Assembly: GCA_051294905.1 (NCBI GenBank)
Contig: CM119372.1
Span: 13,890,001 to 13,954,000 of the forward strand
DNA: 64,000 nt
DNA from: Botryllus schlosseri
Taxonomy: Eukaryota
Direction: 5' to 3'
Of the stretch, positions 2,690 through 45,495 are shown in pieces (positions within the stretch are counted from its first letter, which is position 1; every line of letters starts with the position of its first letter). A program made the translations under genes and the position numbers. The notes under the pieces are model-generated. The model ran no database searches. It was not told the origin of the DNA and saw nothing but the letters and a program-made list of their open reading frames with translations.

Positions 2690-4878
2690 CTACGTCGACG
2701 CAACGAACAGCAGGGGGTGCGCGACGCAAGTACACGCAACCTTGAACTTTCTCGTTGCGATGGTATAACTCCCGTCGACTTCGCTTTTGTAGAACACGCT
2801 CTGTTCGACTTCAACTGGTACTGAGGAATATGTAAAGGTTTGCCTTCCAGTAGTGGGATCAATACATCCCTTGCACGCGCATTTGCTCTCCAAGATCATC
2901 GTGGGAAACCTGCGAAACACAGAGAGTGATTGAGCGTAATAGCGAGCAATATCAGGACGTATGTTCGTTTGCAGCCGAACTCGTAAGGAGGCGGGACTGC
3001 GAAATAACTTGAGCTGATATTGGCGATGTTATATCGGTAATAGCGTGAAAAAGCTTCAGGGATTTTTCAACGTGCGATCTGCGATCTCGTGATAATAAAC
3101 GTTGGGAATGTCTTTTAAGCCTTTGATTGAACTTGGATCACAGCGATACAATCACAACGCCAGGTCGGTCCATATTCCATATACGCTTGTTAAATATCTG
3201 TTATCGAATGCTAGAAATTGAAATGTAAACTTGGAGTTCAGCTATAAGGTTTAATCTACAGAATTTTTTTTCGTCAAGCAGTAAAAGGGATTTTGAATTT
3301 GCCGATACATTGCTTAAACTGCACTTTAATATATTTTGACCCTGGAAGCAGTGACATCACGTACCACCATGGTATTCTTTTTATTATCGACTTTATAGAT
3401 GTCACTTAATTACAAGAGGCAAGATTGCAAATTTTCACATGCGGTAACTGTTAGGGATCGGAGAACATTTTCGTGTCAATTCCAAGCAGGGATTTTTAGA
3501 AATCCCTGATTCCAAGTTACTTTCTCTGATTATAATACTGAATCTGTTGTCGTCGTGCCAAACTGTCATACCACCCACATATTTTGAAATATACTTCGCA
3601 TCTCACTCTATGAGCGGCTTCTCATCTGCTACCGGTGCGTTTGAGGGCTACATCAACCGAACAGGGAATGTGGAATGAGCAGTTGAACGGAACAAGACAA
3701 TAATTTATTTTATTATTCAGGGCTATACTCAAGCAACCGTAGAACTGTTATTGGTCAACGAAGTAGCTAATTGACGAATGACTGGCTATAAAATTTACAA
3801 TTGAACTGAGTAAACTCATGACTGATGACGGTGTATTCTTATTTTCGACACAAGGACATCGTATAAACATATGCCACATATTGATTAGATCTAACTGTAC
3901 ATAACATTTCATGCATGTTACCGTGACAATGCGTTTTGTTCCTACAGTATATCATTAATCGGCTACTTGTTACGCAGAAAATTACCATCTTCACTAGCAA
4001 TTGTTCTCGAAACGAGCTGGTAACTATTTCCAGAATACTCCCGAATCCCCAGAAGGAAACGTATGCCTTGTCATGGTGTTGGTGATTTTTCAGTGACTTA
4101 TCACTGCTTAGTTCACCGCTAAAACACTTGCTACGTTTGGAATAATCGTCATTAGAATATTGCATATGAATCAGGTATGGCGCCTCGCAAAATAGTAAAA
4201 GTATACGTCCATTTGCGAAGTCTGATTCGACCATTACTTTCTACATTTGGCCACATACTTGTCATTGTAGTCAATCAAAATAATCTCACCTATTCGTATC
4301 ATAGCTGATTTCCGACACGTATGGCGATAGGCTTCGTCTGCCTATATCGTCTTTATACTTTCTGAGATATTCTTCTGTGAAAGTCGGACAGCCGCTGTCG
4401 AAAGCTCGCTTCTTACGCGTCAATGATTTCTGAGATTTCCCGAAAGCATTGGCTGCCGTGTTCTCCCTCGCTTTAGTTATATTGTGCATATATTCCTTCG
4501 TTCTTCTAATCAGTTCGCTGTTCATTATGTTTTGGCATATCAGGCTGGAAAATAGTAGTTTATATATTAGCAGCTGGCATTATTTTACGTGTCACCTGTA
4601 GCAACCGACCTACTAAGATTTTGATAATCCAAGTAATACACATATACTACTCAGTGAAATATTCCCGGTACGCCTGAGTAATAAACTTACAGCATTTCCG
4701 GAGAATTGTCGTGGAATTTCCCCTTCAATTGATTGCAATCAAATTCTTCGTCAATCTGTCGCATTACCGTGTTGACGCTACCCGGCGATAGCCTTCGCCC
4801 ATGACATCCGATCTTATGGATCCCGGGTCCATTAAAAATGAGTACAGCCACAATGCCCAGTAAGAAGCAGTTTTCCAT
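2690..4878 (-). CDS. IL17: Interleukin-17 family cytokine, paralog 1 (3 coding exons: 4878-4691, 4544-4290, 2909-2690; 220 aa)
   Basis: GT-AG junctions (CT|GTAAGT..TTCCAG|C; AG|GTGAGA..TCGCAG|G) join into a 663-nt open frame. It encodes a hydrophobic signal (MENCFLLGIVAVLIF) and the IL-17 motifs CP..RSLSPY..D..RFP..CACKGC..SVPV..CTCV. Confidence 0.93.
3487..3508. mobile_element. 22-bp palindromic TIR-only micro-element in IL-17 paralog 1 intron 2
   Basis: CAGGGATTTTTAGAAATCCCTG flanked by the perfect 8-bp direct repeat attccaag. Confidence 0.7.
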
Positions 4879-4946
4879 GGTTATGATCACTAGCGATTCT
4901 TTAGTTTCGTACGATTCTGATGTTTTCAAATAGTCGAGTGGAGCGC

Positions 4947-4952
4947 TTTATA
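4947..4952 (-). promoter_or_regulatory. TATA box of IL-17 paralog 1
   Basis: GGCATATAAAG on minus strand ~70 nt upstream of ATG; equivalent position in all three paralogs. Confidence 0.55.
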
Positions 4953-5791
4953 TGCCTTTTCATTAGGCCAAAACGAGAGATCTGTGATGTCAGAATCGTT
5001 ACAACAATAGCCTTTTTGCCGAGGTTATGCATTTCGCGGAAAAAAATACACTTTATAACATTCGAATCATCATTCACGGTCAAAAACGAATGAAATTTGA
5101 TAGGGCTCACTTAGTTTGACAATACATTCAAATATTGTAAAATGGTTCCATGTGCTGTAGGAAGAATTTAGTGCTCAATACGAGGGATCCCACTCAGGCC
5201 ATGGCATATATTGTGCCACAGCACAACAATATGTGGTACACCACCCTGGACAGAATTGATAATATTCAAATTTAATGGTTCATAATTTTTTTTAATGTCT
5301 CATTGTTTTCACACATATAGATAGAGGCCTATCTGGCCTGCTTAATATACCGTATCTGTGCAATATATGCGGAATCGAAACTTTTCGTGTCTGGGCTGAA
5401 ATGAAACCGGACTTATGGCAAATCGATGTATCTGTTCCGGGCCGCTATATTTACTACTACGGCATGATGATGAAGTTTTACGACACAAATTATATTTCAT
5501 TAAATGAACGACCGCCATGAAAAAGGATATCCAATCCATACAACTCGCTAGTCGTCACAGAAAGATTTTTTAATTGCGGTTACAGAGTTCAGCTGTGCAG
5601 AATCATTGTGAATCACCGAAGTTCTATCTCGCTTACAATTAAAATCCTGTATGCGTGTCCTGTGTGTGAAATATTGTGATCATGCAATTGGTAATATCAC
5701 AACACGAACTGTATGAGAATACGAGCTTGACTTGATGGGTGCAACATGAGATATTATATTCCGATCTATAAATGCTACACTGTTATGTGGG

Positions 5792-6337
5792 TAGGGTTGC
5801 ATTTAAAACAAACATGTTTAAAACATGGCCCTTGTTTACAACATTTTTTTATTTTTATTTTCTAGCCATGGCGTCATTAATCTTCAATTGTGACGCCACT
5901 GTGGAGTGGCATCGACAATTGCAAATATAGGGTAAATATGGCTCCTTTGACGAAAAGGACTTCCGACCACTGTCATAATAAGCAGACCAAAATATCTCTA
6001 ACAAGGACTACATCGTTTTGCATTTACAGTCGGCGGTCATCATGGTCAGAACACCCATTCCGTACCAATTATGTATATCTGCTTGCTATAACTGTCGAAC
6101 CAACGACGATTTCGAGGTTTCCAGCCACTCCGTATTGTAAACGTCGACTGTATTGGGTTCAAATCGTCCGTATAGGCTCATGCTACATGTTTTTCGAAAG
6201 TTTTTGCACAATTATGGCATAATTATACAACGTTTGAAAAAACACAATTTTCTTAAAAGGCACTTGTTTGAAGCACTGTTTAAAACATGCTTTAAGCAAG
6301 GTGTTTTAAAACAGCGTTTGTTCTAAATGCAACCCTA
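5792..6337. mobile_element. hAT-like MITE, family B
   Basis: TIR TAGGGTTGCATTTA; tatgtggg on both flanks (2-bp offset on the right); related partial copy at ~35280-36161. Confidence 0.75.
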
Positions 6338-9300
6338 TATATGTGGGTATCACTTGCGCGAATTATTTTCTCTGAAAAAAGACGAAGCGGTGTTAGAAAT
6401 GTAAATGTTGCGTCTATTCCTGCGATTGTTTTATCTACAGGGTATTGAATAATTTGTTGTGGCTTTGAACATAAGCATCGGGTTCCTTATGCTCACTGCT
6501 CAATGGTGTCTGTTTTCAAGAGAAAGTAAAGCCAAAATCCCCATTCGTAGTCTGTGTCGACTTAATTCTACGTATATAGTTACATATAATTGAATTACAT
6601 AACACTAATTCGGAATCGCGTAAGTTTATTACTCAAGTTGAACGGAATGTATGAACAACCTCATATAGTTGTTCACCGGTTTACCCGAATAAATATTGTG
6701 CGAATAAGCCTTAATCATTGATGTGATGTACCGACAACATAGTTCTGGAATAAATTAAAAGGAGCTAGTAACTAATAGTGCTCAACAGGATGTGGCCGGA
6801 CTCGCAAATTCCTGTCTAGTGTAGTTTTGAAAGTTATACTTCATTGCATTCCAAGTTTGATATGGAATCTCTATTTACCAAAATACCTCATCTACAGCGG
6901 ATGCCATTTTGTATAGTACATCCTTCGTGTAATGGCACAGACATTTATAATTATTACACTTGACATGCTGTGCTGATTTGAATACACTCATGCGGAAGTC
7001 GAATTCGGATTCGCTGAAGATAGTCACGCATTCGAAGCAGATGACGTACATACATTACTGACGTATAATGGATGTCAGTATTTAAGGCTTGCGAAGCATT
7101 TCCCAGAGTCACGAAACTGAAAAAATAATGCAAATTGTAATTTTGTGGGTCCTTTATTCCGGAAACGCTGTGTCGTGAGGATAGTAACAATGAGGGGGTT
7201 TGCCACAAGGAAATCATAATTGCTTCATTTACTAAACTTGGCAGTTTCCAGTAAAATTTGTAATTCTTTTGAATGCTGCTTCAAGTGTATAGTCACAGCT
7301 GTGCGAAGTACCAGTTTTGGAAGTGCTTGGTGAGGGTATAATTAGTGTTATTTAAGTCTGTTGCTATTTCTTGCGTTATTTAAACATAAATGCATGTCTA
7401 TTTCAGAAGTACGCTAAAATTGCATCGCTTATGCAGTTTCATTCTATAGTTCTCACCCTTAGTCGCAACTGTGGCAAGTCATGTTTCGTAATAACCATAT
7501 CCGCCACACAAAATTATCACTTGGGCTGGAATGTACGTCATGTCATCTATCGATAACACAGTGGAGGAATCTGATCCAGTGCAGCGGTAACGTGTTTGAA
7601 TCCGTGCAGTTCTAACGGAGGAATCAAAGTAACTTAAAATCCAAAAGTTTGGTACCAGTTAAAAGGGAGGGAAGTGGTCAAATCTCGCTGTTTGAATATT
7701 ACTCCTGTTAAATTTGTTCTGAACAGAAAAAAATCCGTTTGTCCTGTAATTTGTATGCTCCGGAATGTGAAAGACACGTCGCGACGTGACCGATACAGCG
7801 ATATCACCCAACTATGGGGTCTACGTTATCTGCGAATTCAAATTCGTCACGGCTACTTTAATTGCAAAGTTCTGATAATTTCAGGTATGCATGATGAGGA
7901 AAATCATAACAGTAGTCAACCACCAATAACCCCTTTCGAATGATAACAACAAATAAACTCGTCCAATAGAACGTATCCTCGTGGTCCGCAGGTCATCCTA
8001 GTGCAAGAGATATGTTATTTTAGCGAAATCTGATCCCTCGCATGAGAGTGTCGATAATAACAAAAACAAAATAATATGAGCTCGTCAATCACCCACAGCA
8101 TTGCGATGCTTACTAGGCAGGGAAAACAACACTTCTATCTTTTCAAATACCTCTGAACAAGGCGCCTTCTCGCTCTTGATTTATAGCACAAATATTTCAA
8201 TGCACTACTTATGATGCCATCAAAGGTAAATGTAACCTGAGCAGAATCGCTTGGATCGCGCGGCAGTATCTGCACTTCCGACTTACACAGTTACATCACC
8301 AGAGCTGACAACACACAAAATAAGGCGTGTAGATGTTCAAGAGCTGCTTATTCGCAGTATAGCTCCGATTCATGCTACTACTCGAATGTTCATGAACACT
8401 GGACACACAGTGGTCGCATCAATTCATGCTCTGACATCCGCCAGTACGCCATTCGCATCAAATCATGATTTTTGGAGCATGCCCGATTGCCCGTACATCG
8501 GGAATGCAAATATCAAGGTTACCGAATACCAGACACAAGATCGCCAAAATTGGTTGCTGAGTGTTCAGTTCATACCAGTAATCCTGGTATGGAGCAAAAT
8601 GTAGTTGTATTTTGCACACCCTTGTAGACGCCCATCAGTGTCGCAACAACATTTGATGTCGCGATAACGATCCAATCAACCAGATGAGATTGTCCGGTTG
8701 AATTATCAAGAGGCGGCAGCCCAACTTAATTGCCACTCTTTACATCGCTACAGTTCCAAACAAAAGAAAATAAACATGTTTCGCCGCGAGTGGAATCCAT
8801 ATTCGTACCTATACACATGACTTAAATCAACCTGTTGGCATATCGCCCAGCGAAGAATATTTCGACAACGTCATACATCGATGATCCGGCGGCATTATTC
8901 CCTATCCAGTCATCGGATGATGCAACCAAGAGAGGCAGTCTGTTGGATGACACGTATAAACTAATAACAAGTCTTTACGTAATGTTTACAACGGACAGCG
9001 CATGAATAATTGTCGAAGTACGCCGTATTTCGCAACGATTGCCTGATTGCTCAATGTTCAGTTTTCGGCCTGGAGTTTGTCGACGGGACAGGTGTGTACT
9101 GATAATATCAACAATAGCGATATTATAGTGCATCATCGGTCATCCCCCAATATGTTTAAACATCGTTACGAAACTAGTGACCACTATATTCATCCATTAA
9201 ATGACTGGGCTTACCTTTATGAGCATAAACATTGGGCAGTGACACATGCTATAACCATAATGTTACATTGTCGCAAAATGAAAGCTCTCTGCCTATTAGC

Positions 9301-9831
9301 TACAGCCGAAAACTTGTACCGACACATATGTGATTTGGGGGTATTCTGAATGACTTTGATTGTTATTTGAGAAGCTTAGTCCACTGAAGTATATCTTAGC
9401 TAGATTAATTCCCGTAGTAGTCACCGAATTCGACTATCAACAATCACCGTTGACGATGCGAATCTTGATGATACATAGGTTCGCGCTCGCGACTTCTGAA
9501 CTATCAAGGTACACAAGCCGAACGTGAACTTGAACATAACGTACGCAGCATCCCTATATGCAAACCTATTTTGAAATGCGATAATTTCGCAGAAATCTTA
9601 ACGTTTGGCTCGCAAATCATTCAGTTTCAACTTCCTATCACTCGCTGCATCAAGATGGAAGTATCAAACGAAAGTCAACATATGACTGAGATAAATCTTG
9701 TAACGAAGAAACGTATACTGCTTCTCGACAATTTTGCTTGTAATATCACGCTATTCCGGTTGTAAATAATAATTTAGATAGTTTCTGGGACTGCTACGCG
9801 ACAAGACCGAAAACTGACTATAGATCTAGAT

Positions 9832-10234
9832 CAGTGATCCTCGACCTTTTTCGACTCGTCGCCCCCATATCAATCTCGACACAAATTGTCGTACCCAATA
9901 TTTACGGATCCGAAAAAGAAGACATACAAACGGGAAATTTATTCACCTAACTCTGATCGCTGGTGAATTGACTATAAAGGAAACGTGCTCGGAAAATCGG
10001 TTTCCTCGACTACTTTCAGTTGGGTTGACCATGTTTTCTTTAGTCAATTTTCGCATCATATGCAGAATAAGCCGTCTTCACGCGCATTTTTTGGCCGTGT
10101 TAATTGAATATATCTCACTGGACGTTCTAAAATTTTCGTCCTCCAATCGCCCGTTTGATATTTTCGACCCCGGGTTTCTCAACATCGACCACTGGGGGTG
10201 GGGGGGGGGATATCGCTCACATTGGGAACCACTG
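9832..10234. mobile_element. Charlie/Buster-type MITE
   Basis: CAGTG..CACTG ends; perfect TSD atctagat. Confidence 0.8.
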
Positions 10235-11282
10235 ATCTAGATCATGAGCTTGTATCTTCCCGCGCATGACATATAACTATGTCCAATGCAACCGCAAATG
10301 ACACGAAGATCCTCCGCAGCAAAATCGTTCCAGCACTCGAAGACTCAGGAGCAGACATGGGGTAATCGCGATTAGTAATCGTAATCGATTACGCGGATTA
10401 CAGCATTTTCAAGTAATCGTAATCGCAATCGATTACATTAGAAAAAAATCCAAAGTAATCGTAATCGTAATCGACTACTTCACATATCTAATCGATTTCT
10501 TTGTGAAAGAACGATTACTTTTTATTTGTAGAATGAATTTGACATAACCGAACATTCGTGAACAAGGAAGAGATATTCTACCTCTACCAGGTTATTGATA
10601 GCGCAAACGGTTGATAATCAAACGCCTCTGCCCATTATTATGTCAGAAGTATTATCTTTGCTCGCCCTTGCGTAAGACGTATCCACACGTAGTAAATATA
10701 TATCCGATGTACATTGTTGTGTGGTTGTTTGAACAGCGTAAGCCATGACGTATGTCAGGTTATCAATACGCTCCAGACGCCACTACCTCGCAGCAAGATA
10801 ATAATCATCATTCTGCCTAGTTTCTAATAGTAACTTATGTATTGATGTTTGGTTATGCTTAGTTAAACGCAGTTTGGCCGTTGCTGCTTGGCGAGCAGTA
10901 GGCCTAACTATGTAGTATACGTATGTATTGTACGTACACCGGACAAAGATTTGAAATTTTGTACTCGTCAAATAAAACATTACGATGGTTATAATCAACA
11001 GCTGCTAATATATATCATAACCGACCCGTTCTTTGCCGTTTCTCGTAACGGCAGCTTGTAATATCTGTATTAAGTGGAAGGTAGAATTTTAAGTTCACTT
11101 TATCTTATTCTTATATGACTCTACTTGAAACGGGCGCCAGTCGTGTCGTTATTTCACAATTCTTCACTCGACATTTATACCTGTCGCCATAGCCATCCGC
11201 TTATATACCATGTTAGCGTGGGCTGTAGGTACAATCAGGACCAAAACAGCAATTCGTCCCCCACTCCAAACGTTGGTATTGG

Positions 11283-11819
11283 CAAGGTTGTAACCAAGTC
11301 ACAAGTCAATATCACTTTTATAGTTTTGACTCGAGTCAGTTCGAGTCATTTTCAATTCACCCCCGAGTCAAGTCCTAGTCTAAGTCAGCTAGTGTACGGT
11401 CGAGTCCGAGTCATAGTGTTTGACTCGAGTACGAGTACGAGTCCAAGTCGTTATGTTCACAGATCAGTTTTCAGATCAATCCGGTTCAACCCACTTTTTT
11501 CAACTCTGCTCGAGTGATATAGAATGGCTCGTATTCATAATATAGTAATTTTCATCAGTTTTCACAGTTAACGGCCCGATTTCCATGTACCAGGACTGAT
11601 AGACGAAATACAAATAATGTGGTAACTTTACTATTCTTCGAAGTGACATGGAATGTCTGTCTTGGGCGTTCTAGTCTCAAGTCATATGACAAAATGACTC
11701 GAGTACAAGTCGAGTCCATACAAAAATTGATTCAAGTCGAGTCAATTTACGCATTTGAAAAAATGACTCGAGTCAAGTCTAGTCACCAAATAATCGCGAC
11801 TCTAGTCATTAAAACCCTG
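11283..11819. mobile_element. Nested MITE with GACTCGAGTC subterminal repeats
   Basis: CAAGGTT..AACCCTG ends; TSD ggtattgg/ggtatcgg. Confidence 0.7.
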
Positions 11820-12639
11820 GGTATCGGGGCCCCATGGTGGTCAGTTTTCAAGTTGGTGACTGAATTTTGTCATAATATCGGTAATTGCATTATATTGCTA
11901 TTCATTCAGATTTACCGGTAGAGCTGGGGGCACGTAATTCATAATTAGGCTATAGCATCTGGTATGTTGCCATAATTACTTTATTGTATGTTGTTAATTC
12001 GTGAAAAGATACTGTAGTCGCCCAAACGTAGCAGACTAAAAGAAAAACTTTTGTGAGACGCACACACAAATTGTCATGTCTTCATTCTTCTTTGAGTGCC
12101 CCGGCTAGCATTTGCATTGTTGGGGCTCAGATTGGAGGGACCGGACTATTCGTCACGCCCACAGAGCGCGGCTACTGACAATGGACACATACCCAAAGTT
12201 TTGACCAAGGTCATTCTTTGGTAGCACACTTTGTGGAGTTGCATGTTGGCCGAAATTGCATATGTCTTTTGGTGTGTCTTGGGGGGGTAATGACCGCCAC
12301 CGAAATCCATATTCCTATAAATTATGCATGTTTTTTTCTTGAGGAGGAGAGGTATGCATTTCAAAATCAAGCTATTTAGAGACATTAAATCCCGAAGCTC
12401 GAAGAAAATTTTCAAGTTAATTAACTCTCTTGAAAATACTCTATAATAATTTATGTTGATTTACGAAATACTTTTGAGTCCCCTAAGAGCTCACTCCCGG
12501 TTCTATTGGGGAGTTTGGGGTGTGGCAGTTACGGACCTGGCAAGAATGCAAATCGTTGGGTGCGACGAATAGCCCTGCATAGAGTTGGGCAATGGGTGCA
12601 TTATGACGCAACAAATGACGTCGTCGTCCAAATATCATA

Positions 12640-13058
12640 TGATCGACCAAAAAGATCATCGCTCTATAAAATATGCCGGACCTGATGTGTGGAACAGTAT
12701 CCCGTCGGCCATCCGACAGTCGACGAGCATGTCCACATTCAAGTCGAAATACAAGCAATGACTATTAAATAAATTCAGTTCAACCTCAAGATTACCGGAC
12801 CACGACTGACCTATTGATCTCGCTTCCCATGACATGCCGCCCTATTCTTGTCGCTTTCTATTTCTATACTATCTTCTTTACTTTCATTCAGTGTGCATGA
12901 CTCCTCTTTACATAGCCTAGGCCAAGGTGGGTGTTTGATTCCATAGACTAATCCAAGTCGCTTCGACATCTTCCTCTCTATTCATTGTATCGCATTTTTT
13001 GTGATGTATTGAACTGATAAAATTGCTAATAAACCAATGATGATGGTGATGATGATGA
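12640..13058 (+). mobile_element. 5'-truncated L2/Crack/CR1-group LINE 3' end
   Basis: Translates to SIKYAGPDVWNSIPSAIRQSTSMSTFKSKYKQ, typical of ORF2 C-termini. Followed by a 3' UTR, AATAAA and a (TGA)n tail. Other copies occur in the window. Confidence 0.75.
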
Positions 13059-31467: not shown

Positions 31468-34400
31468 ATGGTGTATTTTGCTTCAGCGCGAAATCCTTTT
31501 ATAATTAAGATAATATTGATATCGTTTACGATGTCGGTTTACAGCCGGAGCGTTCCGCTGAAAGATTTAATACGCTTGGAATATGACTGCAAAGGATTAT
31601 CGGGGGGATCCGTATACGAAACGGCTGAGCTTGGGTATGTGGAATAGAAGTTGAAAATGTGTCGTCGCCGCACGCTACTAATGATGGAAACCACCGTCCA
31701 CTGTTCCGCTATGATGGCCTTGAATGTATAGTCCTATTCTTGCAGTGGCGGAGTGATCGCCCCGGATGCTCACCTTTGATTGGGCAATAGCTACATATGA
31801 ATAATTTAATACATCTCTACCGTATATCGTTAGCAATATTTCCAGAACGCTTTTTTTCAAAACAATAGGGGTCGGGCATTCACGATTTAGTGCAGGGTGG
31901 TAACAGGGATTTCTAGAAATCCCTGACTGGTAATATGCCCCGATGAATGCGTACTGCTATCATTAAATATATCTCATTGAAATATTCTGCAATGCACCTT
32001 TGATCTAGTACAGTGGTTCTCAACCGGGGGTCCGCGAAGCATTTCCAAGGGGTCCGCGAAGCCTCTAAATTTGCGAAATGGTTAATAACCTAATTTTGAT
32101 TTTTTCCATTTAAGCGGAATCACGAGGCTGTTTGTGGTTCATTACGGCTACAAATTCATGACTCACATCAACAGAATGGCCGTCTAGATAAAATATTCTA
32201 CTGCGAAAACTCATTTTAATTGCCAATAGCCTACTGATACAAACATATTGATTTTTGGAGATGTTTTGTTGGGAATTGTGGAAAAAATAGAAGTTGGAGT
32301 AGTAAGGTCGAGAAGGGTAACAGCTGACTTCGAAATGTTTTTAAAAATTCGTTATCACCTTAAATATACATAACCGCTATTCCATAAAAACTTCAAGATG
32401 AATTTCTAGATAGAAAAGACTAGGCTGGACGTTATATTTTCGTTAAAAAATCTGTTTCTCTATTTTGGTGCTATTTCCATATATGTTGCGACCATCCAAA
32501 GGTATCATTGAAAGCGTTTTCCGTTATTATTACATTCGCCACCGCCTATCTTTGTGGAGTTGTGGAGTTTCAAGACATGACCACGTATTAAAGAAATGCA
32601 GCTGCAGAATGAGCTTTCAAATAATATAACTCCACCCAATTTCTAAATAAATAGTATGATGTTATTATCAAGAAAAGTCATTATGTTGCTGTTTATAACA
32701 GCCGGTACAGTTATATTTGCACAGGAAAGATGACGGTTGCGCGATAATAGGGCTAAATTCGAAGAAAAAAACGTGGGGGACGCGGGGGTCCATGAGGGTT
32801 CACAGGGGGTCCGCGAAGACAAAAAGGTTTGGAACCACTGATCTAGTACGATTGCGAGTACAAATATAGATTGCTCATATTAAATAGATATCAGAATGAA
32901 GGTGATGTAAACGAGGCAGCAAAAACGAAATATTCCAATTCGCAGCAAAGAGTGCCACATGCTGATGGCCACTAACATCATGCGAGAGACTCGCCAGTAT
33001 ATCGAGACGGCGTCAGATGAGGAGCTCGAGCGTGCAAGAGTAGAATATTCGGAGTCTAAAACGTCCAACAGCAGCCGCGCGAAAAGATCACCGAAAGCCT
33101 GTCCGATTCTGCATGAGGCCCATTTGAGCGAGCATGACGAAATGAATGGAATGAGGAGCATGTCGCCGTACGACAGCAAACTGGATTTCAATCCTCGCAG
33201 GTAGACAAAATTTATCGAGCTATTCTTTTGGTAAATCTCTGTATGGTATGGTGAGCCAACTTCTACGTTCATTTTGCGCCAGGCCCGTAACTTTGCTTCC
33301 TAATCTTGATCTGCTAATTTGTAGCACAGGCCATTTATGATTTTGTAAGCCTTCCCACTGTTACACACCGTACGCAGCTCAGGTAACGATGGAGACCCCA
33401 AAGATAAAATAAAAAAAATCAGACACTGGAGCAGCGATTACACGCCATTTTTACCCGAACCGATTATATTATTACAGTTACGGGCATCTTATTTTTTCTT
33501 ACGGCACAAATCACCATTCTAATGACAGAAAAAATAGGTTTGTATTCCAATCTTTCGATGAGATATCGTCTTATAATTTGCTCACAAACGTCAGGGCAGT
33601 GTCGATGTCTATACAGTTCTCATAAAACAGTGGTTATAGACATGGAAACTATTATATTGATAACATTGTTTCGGATCTTCATGTCTACATAACATTCAAA
33701 TATCCAGTTAACTTGATGTCGTTCGATTCTTAATCCATGTCTGGTAATAGTGCGAAAGTATGTAGGCTAGTGTCATAAAAGTTGTGGTCGTGAAAACTTT
33801 TATTCCCAATTCCAATCCATACCAACCAGACCTGGCATTGTTCCAATATCATTAAGCTAATGTATTATGGTGGTTGCCCGACATATGAGCATGCGACACA
33901 TTGGAAAACGACAGTTCAGCATGGAACACATCAGCATGCGTCACTTCAGCATGAGACTGTATAACCCAAAAACTTACCCTAACCCGAAACATAGCCTAAC
34001 CTAACCTAACCTAGCCTAACCTAACCTAAACCCTAACCCTAACCCAACCATAAACCTAACCTAACCTACCCCTAACCCGTAATTTAACCCACATGCTCAT
34101 GTGTCGCATGCCAAATTGTCGCATGCCAAAGCGTCGCATGCTGTAATGTCGCATGCTCATATGTCCACGGACCATTATGGTCTGTGTTAATAAAATTGCA
34201 TTCTGAATTCATTCGCATTTCTGCTAAATAGAACTTTTGTTCGTGAAAGTGAAACTGCGAACTGTAGAAACGAAAAACGAGAGACTGCAGTTGGACATTG
34301 CATCTCAATTCACGGGGTATTTTGAATTGGTGAAAAACTTCGATAAAATAACTATATGACTATGGCAAAACGTGGTCGCAATTAGCACAAAAAAGACAAT

Positions 34401-34719
34401 ACGGTTATATTTAATATGTTTTCCCTGGCATATTTCAACAAAGTATTCTTTTGCTTTTTATGTAAACCTTTATCAAGTTCGACATTGCATTCATTGCATT
34501 TATAGGTATCCGAAATACGTTCTACAGCATTACTGCCTATGCGACGGCTGTATAGACCCTCACACTAGACAGGAAAGGACAGATCTCTCGTCATTTCTCG
34601 TTACCGCTGCGATGAGAGTCTTCGTCAAGAAAAAAATACGTTCTGGTTATCGTCCGGCAAATCTCAAGGTCAATGTGGGCTGCACGTGTGTGGTTCCTTC
34701 TATAATAAATCACGCATGA
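31468..34719 (+). CDS. IL17: Interleukin-17 family cytokine, paralog 2 (3 coding exons: 31468-31634, 32946-33200, 34506-34719; 211 aa)
   Basis: Junctions GG|GTATGT..TCGCAG|C and AG|GTAGAC..TTATAG|G give a 636-nt frame. Signal-like FIIKIILISFTMSVYS and motifs CP..RSMSPY..NPRRYP..CLCDGC..CTCVVP. Intron positions and phases match paralog 1, and exon 2 is again 255 nt. Exon 1 is absent from the ORF track. Confidence 0.92.
31904..31925. mobile_element. 22-bp perfect palindrome micro-element in IL-17 paralog 2 intron 1
   Basis: CAGGGATTTCTAGAAATCCCTG, flanks ggtggtaa/actggtaa; 21/22 identical to 3487-3508. Confidence 0.65.
32011..32840. mobile_element. Charlie/Buster-type MITE in IL-17 paralog 2 intron 1
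   Basis: TIR CAGTGGTTC; perfect TSD atctagta; GGGGTCCGCG subterminal repeats; ends related to 46645-47566. Confidence 0.85.
33872..34173. mobile_element. MITE with a telomere-like (CCTAA/CCCTAA) core in IL-17 paralog 2 intron 2
   Basis: TIR GGTnnnnnGACATATGAGCATGCGACA; perfect TSD attatggt; ~15-bp subterminal tandem units. Confidence 0.78.
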
Positions 34720-34948
34720 TTTATTCGCATACTAAATACCTCTACGTGCGCGATTATGAGTTGGGGGAAATTTCAAAATATCGCTGTGCTTCGTTAGACG
34801 TGAAATTATTTTTTGATGTATACGCACATTTACTTGAGTGTGTAACATAGCTTTAATTTTAGCTGAAATTTTAGAATTTGTATTTTTGTCTATGCTTTTA
34901 GAATATATTCCTATACCTTCACTAATTTGCTAATACCACTGGACGTAT

Positions 34949-34954: not shown

Positions 34955-35375
34955 TCATGTTTCACTCCGTTATGACAATGACTGATAAAGAGCGTTATGG
35001 GATATTCAATACAGCCACATCCTGTATAGGTATATACAATTATCTGCATGATGAATTAATTTGAAGACTGAGCGTAAACGGACCCGGTCATAGAGACTGG
35101 TAAAATCCACAGGCTGGGGCAACTTCATGGATCTCTCACCGAACGCGATGTCGTAGCGTTGAACTTTTGTCAACAAGTTTCCTACCAACGACCACGCGAA
35201 CTTAGTTATTATTGTGTTGGTACAGCATGGAAGGTGCGGAGGAATAGACACTAGTACGTAACCCTGTCTTAAACGGAACAAAAATATCTTCAACCAGGTC
35301 TACATCGTTGTGCAGCATTTCTACGGTCGACGGTCAACATCATCAGAATATCCATTCCTACCAATGATCAATAAA

Positions 35376-35893
35376 TAGGGCCGGGCACAATGATTCGAGT
35401 AGTCGAATCTGAATCGAGCATAAATGTTAATGATTCGAGTCGAGTGAGTAGTAACAGACTTTTTCGAGTACTGAAATTCTGCGCTACTCGCCACTGAAAG
35501 ATAATTTATCAGTCTGAATTATAGTTTCGAATCTAATTTTCACTGTTGAAGCCTTGGAACCTTGATTGGCGGTATCGTAGCATACGAAACATCTAGTACA
35601 AAGCCACGAAGGTTACTGGACGTAGCACATTTCCAAAAGTTATCATTATCCCACAACATTGTCACCAAGTGAAATGACTTCGGCATGGTCAAAAAATTAC
35701 CAAAGTATCATTTATGAGATGGATAATAGGCATTATATTCTTTGCGTTGGCATATACGGTACATAGTTCAACTTTGGCTAGTACATAATGTTATGACGTC
35801 ATAATGAGTGATACTCGATTACTCGACTCGACTCGAAGCATACTACTTGATTCAGAATCGAATCACTCAGGTACTAGATTTTGCCTAGCCCTA
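35376..35893. mobile_element. hAT MITE nested in a family B remnant
   Basis: TIR TAGGGC(C/T)(G/A)GGCA; perfect TSD tcaataaa. Confidence 0.82.
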
Positions 35894-36686
35894 TCAATAA
35901 ATACGTGCTATGACTGTGGAACCAACGACAATTTCTAGGGTTCCAACCATCACATATCCGGCATATCGTATACGTCGACTATATCGGACGCAAATCTTCT
36001 GTAGGCTCATACTACATGTTTTTTCGAAAGTATTTACACAATTATGGCATATTTATACAACTTTGAAATAAAAAACAACAACAATTATTTTAATAACATT
36101 TTTTAAAACACTGTTTAATCCATGTTTTAAGCACCATTGTTTTAAAATATAATGAAACCCTAGATAGGGATGATCGATAAGACCTTCGAGGTTAAATATA
36201 GTCTGATCATACCCAGATCAACCAAGTACATTGTTTCTACATGAAAAAAGAAACAAAGTCAATAATAATAGTAGCCCATAAATGCCAATTAGATCACGCC
36301 TTTGCGACGTCAGAGGCAAAACTATTGGTCGAAATGATTAGAGATTAGTAACCACTATCACAATTTTAGTAATTATAATACTAGATTAGTAACATGATAA
36401 TGCCCTCAAATTTCAAAGCTTCAATTCGCCTGAGTCGATCGACTGGGTGATGTGGTGCGATTTAGCGTTGTTTCTTGAGAGTCGTGTTTTGCATGGGCAA
36501 TTCATTGATATTGGTCACTCGAAATCAAATAGATAATTTTGTGGTGTTGCGCCAATATGTAAATGCATATAATCAAAATTATCTATATTTCATTGTTATT
36601 CAGTTCGCTCGCAGACAATTTAGACACCCTGGCTAGTTGGTCATTGAAGTTGTTATCGGTGGTCAGGGAATCGGTTATATTATAAC

Positions 36687-38152
36687 CAGAGGTGGTCAGT
36701 AACGAAGTACTTCTACTTTTTTCGAAGTACTCAAGTAGTTTTCCTCTACTTCTGCTACTTACTCAAGTAGATTTGAATTTCACTACTTCTACTTCTACTT
36801 CATAATATTTTGTGATCTACTTACTTACTTTTCGCTATATTCAGTTTGTCAAGTAGAAGTAGTTTAGTCCTCTAATCAGGAAGATAGCCTGAGAAATGTC
36901 GGGGCTATTTTCACGGAGTATCGACACTTAGTTTTCATAAATTTGAGTTAAGCCCAGAATTTTCGTCGCGCTTCGCGCGCAGTGAATACGGAGTAACCAG
37001 TATGATTTCACGAAAGTATCGGTGAATATTATTTAGGTAGCGAGTTGGCGTGTTTCCGTTCACACCGCATTGTCACCCATCGCCATATGTCATATTTCAT
37101 CAGTGGATACGGAGTGGATACGCAGTGGAGTGGACGCGCAGTGGAGTGGATACGGAGTGGATACGCAGTGGATACGGAGTGACCAGTATGACTTCACGAA
37201 AGTATCGATGAATGTAATTTAGGTAGCGGGTTGGCGTGGTTCCGTTCACACCACATTGTAGCCCTTCGCCCACATGAAATAATTCATCACAGTATATATG
37301 GCTTATCATAACGTTTGAAACTGATGTTTCGCAATCTAGCATTTACTCATCATATTGTAATCAAGCTGTTCATGGCGTGTCCTAATCTGGACTCTGACTT
37401 TTTATAGTTTTAGAGCTGTTTTAGCATACCAACCTTCGAAACTTTCTGGACTAAAGACATTAAATACATGCTCCGTTTTTAGATTTAGACTTCACTTTCA
37501 ATTCCCAGTACCATATATTTTGATTTCTAATTTATATCAGTTCTTTTGTCTGGATAACGTACATGTTGAAGTGTAAAATCAAGTGTGGTTATGTCTTCAA
37601 TTTCCAGAAATAAAGCTACACAATATAGCATTTTACGGTCCACCACATTTTTTATTAACGTTTGCTAATCGCACAAAGTGTTTACATCGTATGAAACACA
37701 ACATCTCCATATTGCTCTTCGACTAAACTACAGGCCTTAAAATATGGGGGAGTGGGCAGTACCATGATATTTTCTAAAACGCGCTGTTTGAGTAAACAGA
37801 GTATAGTATCACGTTTCCATATTAATACTATCATTTTCATCCCATGATGAGGACGAATGCTTATCGAAAATTGGAGACCTGCTGGCTGCTGGTATGCATC
37901 AATATGAATCTAGGTCGTCACCTTTCGCATAGCTCAATTTGCACCTTTTTACAATCCATGCGAACGAATTACGATCGTTTTCACAACTACTTACTCACTT
38001 GAGTACTTTTAAAGTCAGTCAATTCTACTTCTACTTCAAGTAGTTTTAGGATGCTCATGGAAGAAGTACTTCTACTCGTACTTGAGTAGATTTTTTCGTC
38101 GCTACTTCTACTTCTACTTGAGTAGCTTTCTTGACTACTTTGACCACCTCTG
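36687..38152 (-). mobile_element. hAT-like element family E copy 2, with an internal duplication and a GAGTGGATACGCAGTG minisatellite at ~37101-37180
   Basis: TIR CAGAGGTGGTCA; perfect TSD attataac. Confidence 0.88.
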
Positions 38153-41100
38153 ATTATAACTGATCTTAATCGAACGCTACCGTCCGATCTGGCCAGAGCA
38201 TACCGAGAGTCCGGAATAAAATCCCTCTCAAATTTGGAAATCGGCATTGTTACGAACGAACGCAATGATAACAATGTGTTAAGTAATAAGATGAAGTCGA
38301 CATTTTAGCAGGATTTGCTGCGTTGAGACTACAAATGTACTATATGAACTATTTTATTTCCAATAACAGGGGCTGAAAATAGTTTATTTTATTATTATGA
38401 CTATAATTGGTAACTTTCAGTTTCATGTTTTATATCTATCTTCATAGTAATTTGAGTCTGTATTTTTATTTTTTGATCGTTCGTATATCTGGGATTTTTC
38501 GAAATAACCCGAAGAGATCCCAGATCAATCATGTCAAATTGACTTTCGGTTTAAGTCTTATGCGAAATGGTATTGTCATTTTTCTAGCTGCGTACAGCTC
38601 AACCTATATCTCTATCTTGCGTATAGGCCTATCATTATAACGTAAAATCCTCAATATTCAAAGTTTTACCTTTTATAGTACAAAATATAAATCATATGCA
38701 CAAATTCTAAGCAATCGAGGACGAAAGAAATTTAATGAGCCACTATGCACTTCTCTTGGGTGAACTGCATCTGCACCATATTTCAGTGCATTTTTGTCAT
38801 TTTCACAACGCTGGGCATATATATAAAATTGGATATATGAGTGGCGTGATCACGTCCCAAACCAAGACGTGGACGAGGTTTATGGTTCGCAGTATTCCAT
38901 GAAGACCAGAATGCTCATTACTCATAAATGTCTCAGACTATTAGAGCTCTACCCCAATCCAGTGATAATACACGTGGGGTGCCACCCAAATACAGATACC
39001 ATGCGCACGTTGGGCTGTCAGCTTGAACTAATCCTCAATCGCAATGTTCTTTTTGGTTGGTGTTGATCAATGCGTATCCACTATCCATACACTATCCATA
39101 GTTCGTTACGCCTGGACAACTGATTGAGGTAGGGCCTACCACATGTACATAGGATGTCGTACCAGTTTGTGTAAATTGGAGAAAAGTTCAGGTATTTCCG
39201 TTCCATTCTTTTATTCCCGCAAACACTAAAATATCACTGACAGACATATTTCAATTCAGGCTTTTCAACTATCAACTATCATCAGGAGAGAACGTCGGTA
39301 ATTGCGGTAAAACAAATTCGAAATATGTAAATATTTTTTGTCTGTGAGATGACATGACTATATGAAGAGAATAGCGAACGGGATATGACAGCCCACATTA
39401 TCAATAACGGGCATCGGGGCCTGTAATGTGTGCTACGTAGGCCGAACGACCACGGATTAGGTTGTAAAATAACCTATAGAGTCAGCACAACAAAAATGAA
39501 ATATTCCTGGGATCTTATGTCATGTGCCATTTTTGGCTGTCAAGCAGGATTTGAAGTTGGCCATGAAATATTCTCATAACGAAAGTGGTCCACAACTTTG
39601 ACAAGGTTCAGAATCCCTGCCATAGCCATGATTCCTGTATGCAGTTCTCTTATGATGCCTGGAATGATATTGTCGTAACTTGTCATCTAGAATTTTTTGA
39701 AATTCCCCCTATAAACGCCGAACAACACCTGATATCAATGTATCTATATATTTAGGTATGATTTGATAATACGAACATAACCCAACCAGTGTAAACAAAC
39801 TACGCGCTGGCGAAAAACAATAAGTGAGATATGTAGAATGTAGAATTGTAGATAGTATGTTGCGTAGGAATACTTACTGCTTACGTTACTTTCTGAAAAA
39901 GTGTAGTCAGCGTTATAGTAATCAGTTGCCCCCTCGCAAACGATAAAGTTATTTGGGAGAAAATCCTCGTCGACGTGTAATCGAATATTAAGGAAAGCCT
40001 CTTCTGTTCTCCCAATGGATCATGTCATACTTATCACAACTCAATCGTGACATAAGAAAAATTTTGAGCAAATATGACTCAAATTTTGTATGATGACGAG
40101 CGTCTCTAAATGTAAATAACAGCCGATCCGCAAAGTGTACGGATGTATATTGTTAATATGATATTAGGTCATACGTACATGAAGTTTTCGGCCTCAGTTC
40201 CGTTGTTGTATTAAAAATGTGTCATCATTGATGACTTATGAATTCGCTTAAGCCGAACGAACTTCGTGACAGCAACGTAAATCTGCTATAATTCACAAAA
40301 TTCCATGATTTCAGCGGATTACTATTGAAGGGACTATCCGAGGTTTGTAGGCCCGGGAAAGGAAATGCATCCAGGGATGGTGCGAACCCCTGAAAGTTTC
40401 AGGTTCCCGTGAACGCGAACCTTTTTGAAAGGTTCTGTGTGAACGCGAACGTGAACCTATGACGTCACGTGACGTCATATTGCCATTTCCAACCCTCAGT
40501 ACTACCTAGCGACGACTCTGGCCACATTATGCCGAAGTACATGCTGACTTTTTAAACTTCACCAAATGTATCAGGTATACCACGTATATATGTCAATACG
40601 TCATACTATAAGGTTCGGGTATAATAGAAACATGCAGCTCTTTGGCGATAACTTCCGACAGAAGCGTGGGATATGGTATAAGGGATATGTAACTGACAAA
40701 TTATCACTGTGGCGACATTTTTCAGCTTTTTTGCTTTTATGAAACGAAAAATTGAGATTACCTAATTTGACGATACTGATTCCGAATTTGCCGTCAGAAT
40801 TCATATATCATGTCACAATTTTATCGAATAAAAATTTTACGCAAAAGCGCGCTTATGCACATTTAGGCCCGTATATGATACAAGGCTCTCAACTTACTTC
40901 ATTGCCGGTTTTATTATCTTAAACTAATCCCACCAAATAATCAGAATCCTTAGTATTTCCAAGAAATTTCAAAGACTACTCCAATTCGGTTCGTCGCCTT
41001 CCTATCTTTTCATTGTATCGCAGTCTTGTGATGTTTTGAAGGGAAGAAAATATTATTAAATTGATACTGATATCAAAAACTAGGCCTAGAATACTTACTT

Positions 41101-44087
41101 TTTTTTACATACTTATAAAAAGTTACTTTTACTTCTACTTGAGTAGAAATTGACACCGTTTCTTCTACTTCTACTTGAGTATCTATGGTAAGTACTTTGA
41201 CCACCTCTGATGACGTCACAATGTATATAGCTATGAGCCAACAGCAAGGAATACGTCACAGAACAGACTGTTTTTAGCACTGAAATGCAAAATTTTAAAT
41301 CACAGGTTATGAATAAGTCTTGACGTGATAGAAAAATAGCGACTTCATATTCGTAATCAGCGTACGAAAATTGACATCATATCGTCATCATTTTGGCCTG
41401 AAAGCAAAAATCATGTCGACCAGTGTTATTTGTGTCCATAGGACAGTTAGTGCGTTTGGTGGCGAGTACTGGAATTTCGCCCCTGCACTTCGTGATTAGG
41501 TTGGGAATTGGTAAAATGGAAATGACATATTATTCACGTGATATGAACTGGCATCATGGAATTTGTTCTTATAGTTTAGTTGATTAACAATTATATCAGA
41601 TCAATACAATGAAAAGATAGGACGGTGTTGAAACAACTTGAAGTATAATGTTTGAAACCAGACACTAACCACGAAACTATACGTTTGAGTTTGCCATCTG
41701 ACATCTGACAACTGTCGTACTCGCACAGCGATATTTATGCGTGGTTACATATTATCCGTACGCACGAAGATTTTGATGTTTTTAGATATGCGCATTAAAA
41801 TACCTTACTGCGTCGTCATCAATGACCAACGGCCATCACTTACATCTTACATCACACGGGTACAGACGATATATCATGCTTTCTTTCGGCGCCGTATTGT
41901 AATCAAATTTCCATACGGCAGTAGGCCTAATTTAGCCTAAAACCACTCACTGGGAAATTCATACTACTTTTCATACGTATATTCTCTCTAATCTAATATT
42001 ATCGCAAATTTCTGGCTATATTCTGTTGCTTCACACTTGCTGCAATTCCTGAAATTATTTATGACTTATTTTTACAAAAACAATCTGTTCCGTTATTTTT
42101 TTCTTCATTATCAAGCGCGGTATCACGTTGTCTCCTTAGCATATATATTCTGAATGGTTGCTCTATCTATGTGTGTGTTAGTGGGTTGATTATATATGTC
42201 TGCATATGTAATTAGCTATCGTTGGCATCAAATACTCTTACTCGCGGTGACTGACTCCGAAGACCTCACGACCCCTCGTCGAGTAGGCCTACTTGTATAC
42301 ATAGCAATTTTATGATATATCTTTTCTCCTTGTTTCTTGGTGTGGAGAGTAAAAACCTATCTATATATCGATCTATCTGTGCAAGCGGATATCGCATAAG
42401 AATTTCGTGAAACATGTTATTGTTGATTCAATCAAAATTGCGATCTCACAAAGGGACGAACCGGAGTGATTAGCTGACGGTTGGAGTGAGAATTATCAAA
42501 TTCCGACAAACGTAGCGCAGGAGCTCTCGGAATGCTGATATAGCGATCGGAGGGTCGATCGTGAAATTCGTACTTGTAGTCCACGTGACAACCAAAGATT
42601 TGACGCCTGCATACTATCATTCATCCCGCCTATTTGATTGATATTGACGCCAGTCAGTTGGATTATTTTTTTAACTCCGAGGTCACAGCCTAACTGTATA
42701 TTCGCAAACAACTATACCACGTGTTGTGTGACGATGGCAAACTTGTCGGTAAGTTACGCCAATTCTCAGCTTTCATTTTGTTCTGCAACAGACTCCCATC
42801 GCACTCCGGTCGCACCAGATCTTTTAATATCCATCGCAATTTCAAAATGGCGCAGGCATTTGTATTACAGCGGCTTATAGTGGTGATAGTGGTATATGAT
42901 AGTGATAGTCCATCCGTTTTGTGATACACATACACCGGGACTGTGGCACAGAAGCTCCACTGCTGCATGTAATTTTCTGCGCCACTGCCATTATATGAAT
43001 ATGATATGTGTCCAACATTCAACGGATCGAAAACATAATACTGCGATTTTAAAAACTGTTCAAGTCTAAGTATTAATTAAATATAATCGATGAATTTTGC
43101 AATGCAGTTCAAACATACTTGGTTAGTACCTCAGACACCCCCCCATCGCGTTTGATGTAGGGAATTCTCCGTTCCAAGCTCTAGAATGCGGCATATGCGC
43201 TATGATGTCATATTATTATGTGGCCTTCGACTACAATGACACGAAATATACGCGGGTTTCTTGAACTCCTTGGGGTATTTCGTCCCAGCTCTTTCGATAC
43301 AGTCTAACCAGTTAAATTACTGGAAGTCCCCTGTAGGCCGGTTTCGTGTTTCGCTATTTCGTAATCAAATAATTCCACCCGATCGAGTCTGACTTCCAGT
43401 TGATTGTTTCACACCTGGGGCAACATCATCCCAGAATACGGAATGTCGCCTTGGTGCTATAAAGTTTCGAGTAGCGCTCGTATCAGCGAAGCCTATTTCA
43501 TCGCGATATTTCAGATAGCAGAAATGATGTTTTTTTATAAATAATTTATTGTCTTCTGGTAAAGCATAGACATTTGAAGAATGGAACAAATTACAAAAGT
43601 GAAGATAGATGAAATAAATCTCGGAAATAGTTTTAAACATGATGCGTATTATACATAATTATTTATAAATATATCTGTAGTTAAAAACATATTATCAACA
43701 CATTCGTAAGTCAAGCTAGTCTATAGACGCGCATCACAGTTCCAAAAAACGAATATCTCAATATATATGTAAATAAACGATGACAATTTAATTCTAAAGA
43801 TGCATTGCCCCAGAACACATTTAGTATAATATGTGGTCAATCACCGACTCAAAATAAAGGCAACGAAAAAAGTGATCCGATTAGCTGATATTGTTTGATA
43901 CGATTTTCCGAATAACAATGTTCCGTCGACATCACGTCATTAATAGCTATTCTTCAAAACTTAATCGTATCTACCTGAAGACAAGGTGGAATTATTAATG
44001 GTTACAAAAAACATTACAAGATGCAAGATCGCATGATGCTGGGAATGCAGTGGGATACTGGAATGTAACGAAATACTGGTATCACGT

Positions 44088-45495
44088 CTAAATAAATCCA
44101 ATCATACAGTGACAACCAATCGTTATGACATCGACATCTCTAATGTTGTAGTTCGCGGTGCCGACATTCTCCCGATACCAGAAAATGAACTTCGTCATTA
44201 CAGCTTTTGACTTCAATGAGACACCGTTCATGTGCAATGTTTCCTGTCTCGTTCCGGGATTTATGCAGCCTTCGCAGAGACACCGGCGCTGTGCGATGTA
44301 GTTGGGAAACCTTGAGAAAGAGAATAAGCGACTCATGATTACTATTATTCGAGAAGGCTAACTTTAAGCGTGCTACGCAGCGTATTTTATGACCTGCGAA
44401 ATATTTGGGACGAGTTCTATCGTTAGTGCTGTAAGTGATTAACTGGTAGCCTACTGAGGCCTATCACTCTGTGCTGCCTGCAAGCTACTCGCGGTAATGG
44501 TTAAATCGACTTATACCTTTACCTTTGTCTTTTGACAAATGTTGTTTCACAGACCAGTAGAACCACTTATCACTTGCATATAGTTTTCAACGTATACACG
44601 ATTTTGAAAGGTGTCCATTAAATATAGGCCCCCTGCAGCCTCTGACAATCACAACGCGGCCTAAAAAACTGGTACAGAATATGTCATACGTTACGCTTCG
44701 TACCTCAAGGGGTTGTATTCTAAATCGGTGCTGTAAGGTGATAGACTTGTGCTTCCACTCAAGTCTCGCTGCCGCTGCATCAAATCGTCCGATAATCTGG
44801 GGCACTCGGTCGCTGATCGGCGAGTCCGACGATCGCGTTGATAATATCTCAATCTTGCTTCTTCTAGCTGCTGCGGGACAGCTTTTCGAATCAAGGCCAA
44901 GGATTCGCGCATCACGCCAGTTCGCATCATCAATTCGCATTCCCTCCTAGTTAGTACGATACACGTTGCAGTACATTGTCGAAAATTATGCATACGCATG
45001 TTTGAAACTCCATAACTATAACACACGGAGCATGAGAGTGTACGTTGTAAGCCTTATAATGACAGTAGCCATCATGCAATTCGGGAATTGTCATAGCTAT
45101 TGCATTGCGATCGGATAAAAAAACAAAGGCAATAACACGTTTACCAGTATAGAGCTTCCATGAAATGTATCCTGTACATAGAGCAGGTAAATTAGCTGAC
45201 TGATGTGACATACAACAGCCACAGCAGTAGCACCGAACATCAACAACAACAACCGACGATCGAATGACAATTCCAACCCATCAAATCACACTAGACTAAA
45301 TGGTACTCACAACAACTGCTTCGTCTCTTCACGAGATTCACCCACGATTCCTTTGCATCGATATTGTCTCGTTGCGGCATGCGCGGACTCAAAACGAAGT
45401 TTTCTGGATACTCTCCAGTCCATCGGAATAGCCGCGGTACAAAGTGAAATAAGAAAATCGGAGAGTAGGAAATGAAATATAGCACTCGTTTTCAT
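44088..45495 (-). CDS. IL17: Interleukin-17 family cytokine, paralog 3 (3 coding exons: 45495-45311, 44946-44704, 44310-44088; 216 aa)
   Basis: Junctions TT|GTGAGT..AACTAG|G and AG|GTACGA..CTCAAG|G give a 651-nt frame. Signal MKTSAIFHFLLSDFLISLCTA and motifs CP..SLSPY..NPLRFP..CLCEGC..GCHC. Phase-2 introns as in paralogs 1 and 2. Confidence 0.92.

Follow-up and report, generated by a model that had tools for sequence, protein, structure and literature searches.

Three divergent interleukin-17 genes of Botryllus schlosseri probably encode convertase-processed cytokine precursors

Cytokines of the interleukin-17 (IL-17) family play a central part in barrier immunity and rank among the major drug targets, and they are usually treated as needing only the removal of a signal peptide. 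A 64,000-nucleotide stretch of the tunicate Botryllus schlosseri genome (GenBank assembly GCA_051294905.1, contig CM119372.1, positions 13,890,001 to 13,954,000; hereafter the window) raises the question of whether some IL-17s are instead made as proproteins and released by a convertase. The window is animal DNA with about 40% G+C, located on contig C2 of a 495.5-Mb assembly, and it contains three divergent IL-17 genes (g1, g2, and g3), each of which has an arginine-rich motif just ahead of the IL-17 domain. An earlier note on this DNA, made from the sequence alone, had proposed that the three genes form a furin-cleavable IL-17 subfamily. Our analysis indicates that they are probably paralogous tunicate IL-17 prepro-cytokines processed by a convertase, while it changes the view of how special they are.

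Each of the three genes has three exons separated by GT-AG introns, and both introns are in phase 2 (Table 1). The Pfam IL17 profile (PF06083, cut-off 24 bits), which was run exon by exon rather than on the joined proteins, matched every exon 3 over profile positions 16 to 80 or 81, the first 15 positions being encoded by exon 2. The cysteine framework of the family is present in all three genes and consists of a first Cys in C-P, the S-x-S-P-W/Y motif, C-x-C-x2-C, and a C-x-C near the C-terminus; C, P, and S-x-S-P were invariant in alignment A1, and the four knot-region Cys columns were invariant in alignment A2. The nearest named homologs, among the matches listed, came from the ascidians Styela clava and Ciona intestinalis, and a tblastn search with all exons yielded no fourth IL-17 gene in the window. 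Gene structure and IL-17 identity are observed features of this locus. The genes are also highly divergent, as the earlier note had described, with 24–34% identity to each other over exon 2 and 28–38% over exon 3.

What lies between the N-terminus and the IL-17 domain is shared despite this divergence. The sequence R-x-K/R-R is the furin/PCSK consensus, and R-x-[KR]-R was found at one place only in each protein, as RKKR in g1, RAKR in g2, and RTRR in g3, the last overlapping an RDRR three codons upstream. All three motifs were located at the positions and on the strands that the earlier note had assigned to them (Table 1). The P1 Arg is separated from the Cys of CP by 5, 4, and 4 residues in g1, g2, and g3, respectively, the predicted mature peptides have 111, 108, and 111 aa, and the pro-region between the hydrophobic N-terminus and the site measures approximately 77–85 aa; the previously proposed spacing of 4–5 residues, the peptide lengths, which were identical on recount from our gene models, and the pro-region of about 80 aa were thus all reproduced. 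Two pro-region Cys, encoded by exons 1 and 2, respectively, are 17 residues apart in all three genes, and the N-termini are hydrophobic and represent putative signal peptides.

The product of these genes would accordingly be laid out as a signal peptide, a helical pro-domain (about 80 aa, two Cys), a short flexible linker carrying R-x-K/R-R, and an IL-17 domain with a cystine knot (about 110 aa). Most likely, cleavage in the secretory pathway would be carried out by a furin-type proprotein convertase directly behind the P1 Arg and would place the mature N-terminus 4–5 residues ahead of the first IL-17-domain Cys. We infer the cutting of the site, the identity of the convertase, and the role of the pro-domain, which may aid folding or dimerisation or may confer latency.

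Is the motif maintained in other ascidians? A profile built from 23 exon-3 translations retrieved 389 proteins at E ≤ 0.001 out of 1.84 billion representatives, and the best 150 of these were listed. The Styela proteins P0031, P0038, and P0026 are apparent orthologs of g2, g1, and g3, with 58, 47, and 31% identity over exon 2, and they carry RPKR where g2 has RAKR, RKRR where g1 has RKKR, and RRKR where g3 has RTRR. Ciona IL17-1 has RHKR, and a second Ciona record has RQKR. A search of tunicate orthologs for the site had been suggested in the earlier note; the apparent Styela ortholog of each window gene retains the site, as does Ciona IL17-1. The same layout of putative signal peptide, Cys-containing pro-region, R-x-K/R-R, CP, and IL-17 domain is common to g1–g3, Ciona IL17-1 (Q6L5M6 / NP_001123347), and the Styela IL-17-like proteins (XP_039267779, XP_039268001, XP_039266357, XP_077966475), although the pro-region of Ciona IL17-1 is shorter (about 46 aa) than those of g1–g3, and Ciona IL17-2 has no site. 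The Styela and Ciona records are named "interleukin-17B/C/F-like," "uncharacterized," or "precursor," and a pro-domain or convertase site is unmentioned in these names.

We then considered 21 ascidian rows of class A (from this genome, S. clava, and C. intestinalis, with one other row) in alignment A3. The motif occupied the same columns in 17 of the 21 rows, compared to 0.31 of 21 expected from composition-preserving shuffles of the 40-residue stretch ahead of the Cys; given the relatedness of the rows, these counts do not amount to a probability. Within the motif, P4 was Arg in 18 of 20 rows, P2 was Lys or Arg in 19 of 20, and P1 was Arg in 19 of 20, while P3 took 12 different residues including Glu, Pro, and Ile, and the columns flanking the motif were only 15–37% conserved. 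Fixed P4, P2, and P1 positions together with a free P3 indicate a protease subsite pattern and not a mere basic patch. The first Cys could be placed by the parser in 75 of the 150 listed representatives (the others had no S-P-W in 55 cases, no C-x-C-x2-C in 16, and no Cys in 4), and 21 of the 75 had a canonical motif ending 4–9 residues before it, compared to 0.023 per 13 positions in the remainder of these proteins, taken as background. Word-index homolog searches, for which the index is blunt in this family, gave no match with g1 exon 2 and two proteins with A3, both already in that alignment. The proteins of g1–g3 contain 14–16% Lys plus Arg, a composition in which functionless motifs might arise by chance in Arg/Lys-rich linkers, but the counts of 17 rows against 0.31 and of 21 in 75 against the background leave this explanation with virtually no credibility. 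Instead, these comparisons support the view that the polybasic block of ascidian IL-17s is under selection with a furin/PCSK signature.

How special are the three genes within their own genome? The IL17 profile had 24 exon-3 matches on six contigs, and an upstream exon 2 was located for 20 of these; for the other four (L008, L019, L023, and L024), the roughly 7.7 kb inspected upstream yielded none. Of the 20 paralogs with exon 2, 12 have a canonical R-x-[KR]-R a short distance ahead of their first Cys, so that a special subfamily of three, as initially envisaged, did not hold up. Seven of the 12 belong to class A, with the motif 4–7 residues before CP: the three window genes, L017 (RHRR), L020 (RTKR), L021 (RTRR), and L022 (RKKR). 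The other five are class B paralogs from a tandem array near 21.7–21.85 Mb, namely L001 and L002 (both RHKR), L006 (RQRR and RSRR), L009 (RLKR), and the truncated L007 (RSRR).

Two further groups of paralogs were observed in this genome. L011, L012, L014, L026, and L031 (C2 16.75–16.82 Mb and C16 3.76 Mb) have N-terminal regions of 150–250 aa on one exon, keep the pro-region Cys-x(12–16)-Cys, and have no canonical furin site beside CP; Thr/Ser-rich, mucin-like stretches occur in L012, L014, and L031, and a dibasic G-x-R-R-[SA]-x-D site, some 20 residues upstream, is common to L014 and L031. Among the class B array members, L007/L027 and L019/L033 (C2 21.75–21.82 Mb) look broken, as the exon-2 frame of L007 is stopped just before RSRR and exon 3 of L019 has no C-terminal Cys pair.

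Does the motif reach the mature RNA? In run X2, a 545-nt contig joins positions 32945–33198 to 34504–34794, which is the exon 2–exon 3 junction of g2, and a 907-nt contig, with 69 further letters 5′ of g3 exon 2, joins 44702–44945 to 43722–44308, which is the corresponding junction of g3, both within a two-base AG ambiguity. These spliced contigs place the motif-bearing exon 2 in mature RNA. Contigs of run X1 ran across exon–intron borders and are uninformative on splicing. The earlier note had named splicing that drops the pro-region as a result that would speak against its proposal; for g2 and g3, the genes covered by the RNA comparison, which did not include g1, the X2 contigs keep exon 2 joined to exon 3.

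The earlier note had also treated the site as peculiar to this lineage, a view that vertebrate IL-17C does not bear out. Among the matches listed, the vertebrate proteins that best fitted the ascidian exon-3 profile were IL-17C proteins, and the vertebrate carriers of the canonical site among the 150 listed were IL-17C proteins as well (lungfish, three frogs, axolotl, gecko, Tasmanian devil, pig, shrew, bullfrog, sturgeon, and platypus). Similar to g1–g3, many IL-17C proteins have a polybasic block 5–10 residues before the same first Cys, and the N-terminal region ahead of it measures about 60 aa and contains one conserved Cys; unlike the ascidian class, IL-17C has extra Cys in its core. A search with hippopotamus IL-17C as the query listed 120 of 235 matches, and 121 records were examined and 113 parsed, the human protein being outside these rows. 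The canonical site was present in 70 of the 113 parsed rows, while 8 had only R-x-x-R, 24 only a dibasic pair, and 11 none of these. All 38 parsed sauropsid rows (P0257 to P0300; by name birds, turtles, alligator, and gecko, with one row nameless) were canonical, compared to 32 of the remaining 75, which are mammals by name except for four nameless rows. None of the 7 primate and none of the 15 rodent rows among those listed had the canonical site, which is degenerate there. Judged by sequence comparison, ascidian IL-17s share the pro-IL-17 architecture as a family trait, and many vertebrate IL-17C proteins match it in position.

Where the site lies in the folded precursor was addressed with an AlphaFold2 model of Styela P0031, the apparent ortholog of g2, built with alignment A3 (mean predicted local distance difference test, pLDDT, of 82). 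Helices at 64–78, 81–92, and 95–113 had block pLDDT values of 86–96, whereas RPKR (115–118) lies within block 111–120, with a mean pLDDT of 61, low pLDDT being only a proxy for exposure. The beta-rich core matched IL-17A/F structures (Foldseek E about 1e-6, template modeling score by target 0.55–0.79). The model thus gives the predicted picture expected of a folded pro-domain on a cleavable linker. Convertases also seem to be encoded in this genome, where the convertase P-domain (PF01483) had 11 matches, the best of 72.4 bits in a 735-aa open frame. For vertebrate IL-17C, no solved structure was found in the copy of PDB that was searched; in a model of alligator IL-17C, RSRRRRR (75–81) ends a confident helix (block 71–80, mean pLDDT 91).

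The alligator model is consistent with another explanation, in which the N-terminal region is permanent and the basic block either binds glycosaminoglycans or matrix or has a structural role. IL-17B, IL-17C, and IL-17D are usually drawn with a kept N-terminal extension, many vertebrate rows have long poly-Arg runs with no tidy R-x-K/R-R, and a cleavage product was not observed. However, the free P3 between fixed P4, P2, and P1 positions in ascidians fits protease subsites better than a charge patch, the ascidian site falls in the low-pLDDT linker of the P0031 model, and its position is fixed at 4–9 residues before the first Cys. We consider a retained N-terminal region unlikely on this evidence and favor removal of the pro-region by a convertase.

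Whether the ascidian and IL-17C sites share an origin is a separate question. An hhalign comparison of the ascidian and vertebrate IL-17C pro-regions, with the site left out, detected no similarity (probability 0.3, E 0.18; and probability 0.2), while MAFFT aligns one Cys and the basic block of the two, which is suggestive only. The hhalign result and the helix-end position of the block in the alligator model would weigh against a simple common origin. Tentatively, and with less confidence than we place in the processing of the ascidian proteins, convertase-cut pro-IL-17 might be ancestral in an IL-17C-like branch of tunicates and vertebrates, perhaps in ligands of the IL-17/crustacean female sex hormone (CFSH) type at large, in which case release or activity of IL-17C in birds, reptiles, amphibians, lungfish, monotremes, marsupials, and many placentals would need furin-type cleavage and the site would have decayed in primates and rodents. 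Such decay would explain its absence from a literature based on human and mouse.

Several observations weigh against convertase processing of g1–g3. Besides the unobserved cleaved protein, and a basic cluster that could serve glycosaminoglycan binding instead, the first exon of g2 is proposed from sequence features and weak similarities, the signal peptides of all three genes were judged by hydrophobicity alone, and the structural evidence comes from a model of Styela P0031 and not of the window proteins. The site also seems dispensable for some family members: 8 of the 20 paralogs with exon 2 have no canonical site (L003, L004, L010, L011, L012, L014, L016, and L018), some of them having only a dibasic pair 20–25 residues upstream, and 4 of the 21 rows of A3 have no motif (Styela P0040, Ciona IL17-2 [P0179], P0128, and P0106). 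Finally, depth over the IL-17 exons was approximately zero in the raw RNA-seq runs X16 and X20 at the sampled depth. With these points taken into account, the observed conservation of P4, P2, and P1, the position of the site in the linker of the ortholog model, and the presence of exon 2 in spliced RNA still make convertase-processed prepro-cytokines the probable reading.

Table 1. Gene models of g1, g2, and g3, their motifs, and other features of the window (position 1 is the first letter of the window).
Feature	Positions	Strand	Content
g1	4691-4878, 4290-4544, 2690-2909	minus	220 aa
g1 exon 1	4691..4878	minus	ATG, hydrophobic N-terminus, first conserved pro-region Cys; GTAAGT donor, phase 2; collinear with Styela P0038, E 2e-5
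g1 exon 2	4290..4544	minus	Second pro-region Cys, RKKR, CP, SLSPY opening the IL-17 domain
g1 motif	4406-4417	minus	RKKR
g1 exon 3	2690..2909	minus	IL-17 domain (C-x-C-x2-C ... C-x-C) and stop; Pfam IL17 54.4 bits; L005 in the genome list
g2	31468-31634, 32946-33200, 34506-34719	plus	211 aa
g2 exon 1 (proposed)	31468..31634	plus	ATG, hydrophobic N-terminus, EYDCKGL motif
Possible decayed or alternative first exon of g2	32656-32826	plus	Inside g2 intron 1; ATG, signal-peptide-like stretch, in-frame TGA, good AAG/GT donor in wrong phase
g2 exon 2	32946..33200	plus	Pro-region, RAKR, CP, SMSPY
g2 motif	33076-33087	plus	RAKR
g2 exon 3	34506..34719	plus	IL-17 domain and stop; Pfam IL17 50.4 bits; spliced contig extends through the 3′ untranslated region to 34794
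g3	45311-45495, 44704-44946, 44088-44310	minus	216 aa
g3 exon 1	45311..45495	minus	ATG at 45495, hydrophobic N-terminus, first pro-region Cys; GTGAGT donor; similarity to Styela P0026, E 2e-4
g3 exon 2	44704..44946	minus	Pro-region, RDRR/RTRR (44817-44837), CP, SLSPY
g3 motif	44817-44828	minus	RTRR
g3 exon 3	44088..44310	minus	IL-17 domain and stop; Pfam IL17 41.9 bits; spliced contig
High-depth stretches	about 35000-38500 and 40000-41500		Contig depth into thousands, many odd joints
Ser/Arg-rich open frame	37987-38304	minus	No Pfam match; similar to the frame at 63523-63882
CREB/ATF-like open frame	58596-59453	plus	Uninterrupted, 285 aa; pKID 46.2 bits, bZIP_1 69.3 bits; KID and bZIP in a single exon
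Ser/Arg-rich open frame	63523-63882	plus	No Pfam match; similar to the frame at 37987-38304

Among the upstream ATG frames, only the proposed first exon of g2 combines a long hydrophobic start with a phase-2 GTATGT donor, and its similarities are weak (E 0.049 to g3 exon 1; E 0.01, short and collinear, to Styela P0031). A nearer ATG with a signal-like start, at 32656, was rejected as the start of g2 because of an in-frame TGA and the wrong phase at its only good donor; the segment that begins there may be a decayed or alternative first exon. Elsewhere in the window, the stretch between g2 and g3 looks like high-copy repeat or transposon sequence, and a CREB/ATF-like frame and two Ser/Arg-rich frames were also noted (Table 1).

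If processing occurs as proposed, the folded pro-domain and the convertase motif would add a layer of post-translational control over where and when active ligand appears, and IL-17 would resemble other cystine-knot ligands in this respect. The motif is retained across ascidian orders and has a positional match in many vertebrate IL-17C proteins. The boundary of an expression construct decides what is assayed, and the arrangement therefore matters for recombinant IL-17s of invertebrates and non-model vertebrates.

An architectural precedent is crustacean CFSH, which is described as a preprohormone with a signal peptide, a 33-aa precursor-related peptide, a KR site, and a mature chain of 167 aa that contains an IL-17 domain, and which is expressed, together with "CFSH-like" proteins, in neurosecretory tissue (PMC6056722). 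In the account given by an oyster paper, CFSH precursors have the same architecture, and oyster IL17/CFSH precursors were found only in visceral ganglia (PMC8398477). Compared by architecture only, from these descriptions, CFSH and g1–g3 both place an IL-17-domain chain behind a precursor piece and a basic site. However, CFSH is an arthropod eyestalk neurohormone with a plain KR and a 33-aa related peptide, whereas g1–g3 are chordate genes with a four-residue furin-type motif, a conserved P4 Arg, and a predicted helical pro-domain of about 80 aa.

This precedent raises the question of whether g1–g3 could themselves encode CFSH-type neuroendocrine prohormones. In that case, PC1/3 or PC2 would cleave the dibasic pair inside regulated secretory granules, and the products would act as hormones instead of furin-activated immune cytokines. 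The crustacean and oyster precursors are, in the descriptions cited above, IL-17-domain prohormones of neural tissue, K/R-R is also a PC1/3–PC2 signal, and the near-zero depth in the two bulk RNA runs is compatible with a small expressing cell population. On the other hand, the P4 Arg kept in 18 of 20 rows is a furin-type requirement that PC1/3 and PC2 do not need, and a sea-urchin IL17 paper reports, citing Vizzini 2015, that the three IL17 genes of Ciona are upregulated in pharynx and immune cells after lipopolysaccharide exposure (PMC5457136). We judge a neuroendocrine role quite improbable and retain the view of g1–g3 as furin-type cytokine precursors.

In the passages drawn on here, the same sea-urchin paper mentions the signal-peptide cleavage site alone (PMC5457136), and no description of convertase processing of chordate IL-17s was found in the literature at the level of titles and abstracts. 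The CFSH precedent nevertheless means that there is in principle nothing new about producing an IL-17-fold ligand from a convertase-type precursor. The processing proposed in the earlier note thus gains from the selected furin/PCSK signature, the linker position of the site in the ortholog model, and the convertase P-domains in the genome, while its claim to novelty is reduced by an IL-17-domain prohormone that is already published.

Outside the IL-17 family, NGF and the other neurotrophins, Spaetzle, and TGF-beta have a pro-domain, then a furin-type site, and then a cystine-knot ligand, and their pro-domains have roles in folding, latency, and sorting. A comparable role for the pro-domain of g1–g3 is a conjecture; the likeness is one of layout, in which these IL-17 precursors would join the neurotrophins, Spaetzle, and TGF-beta.

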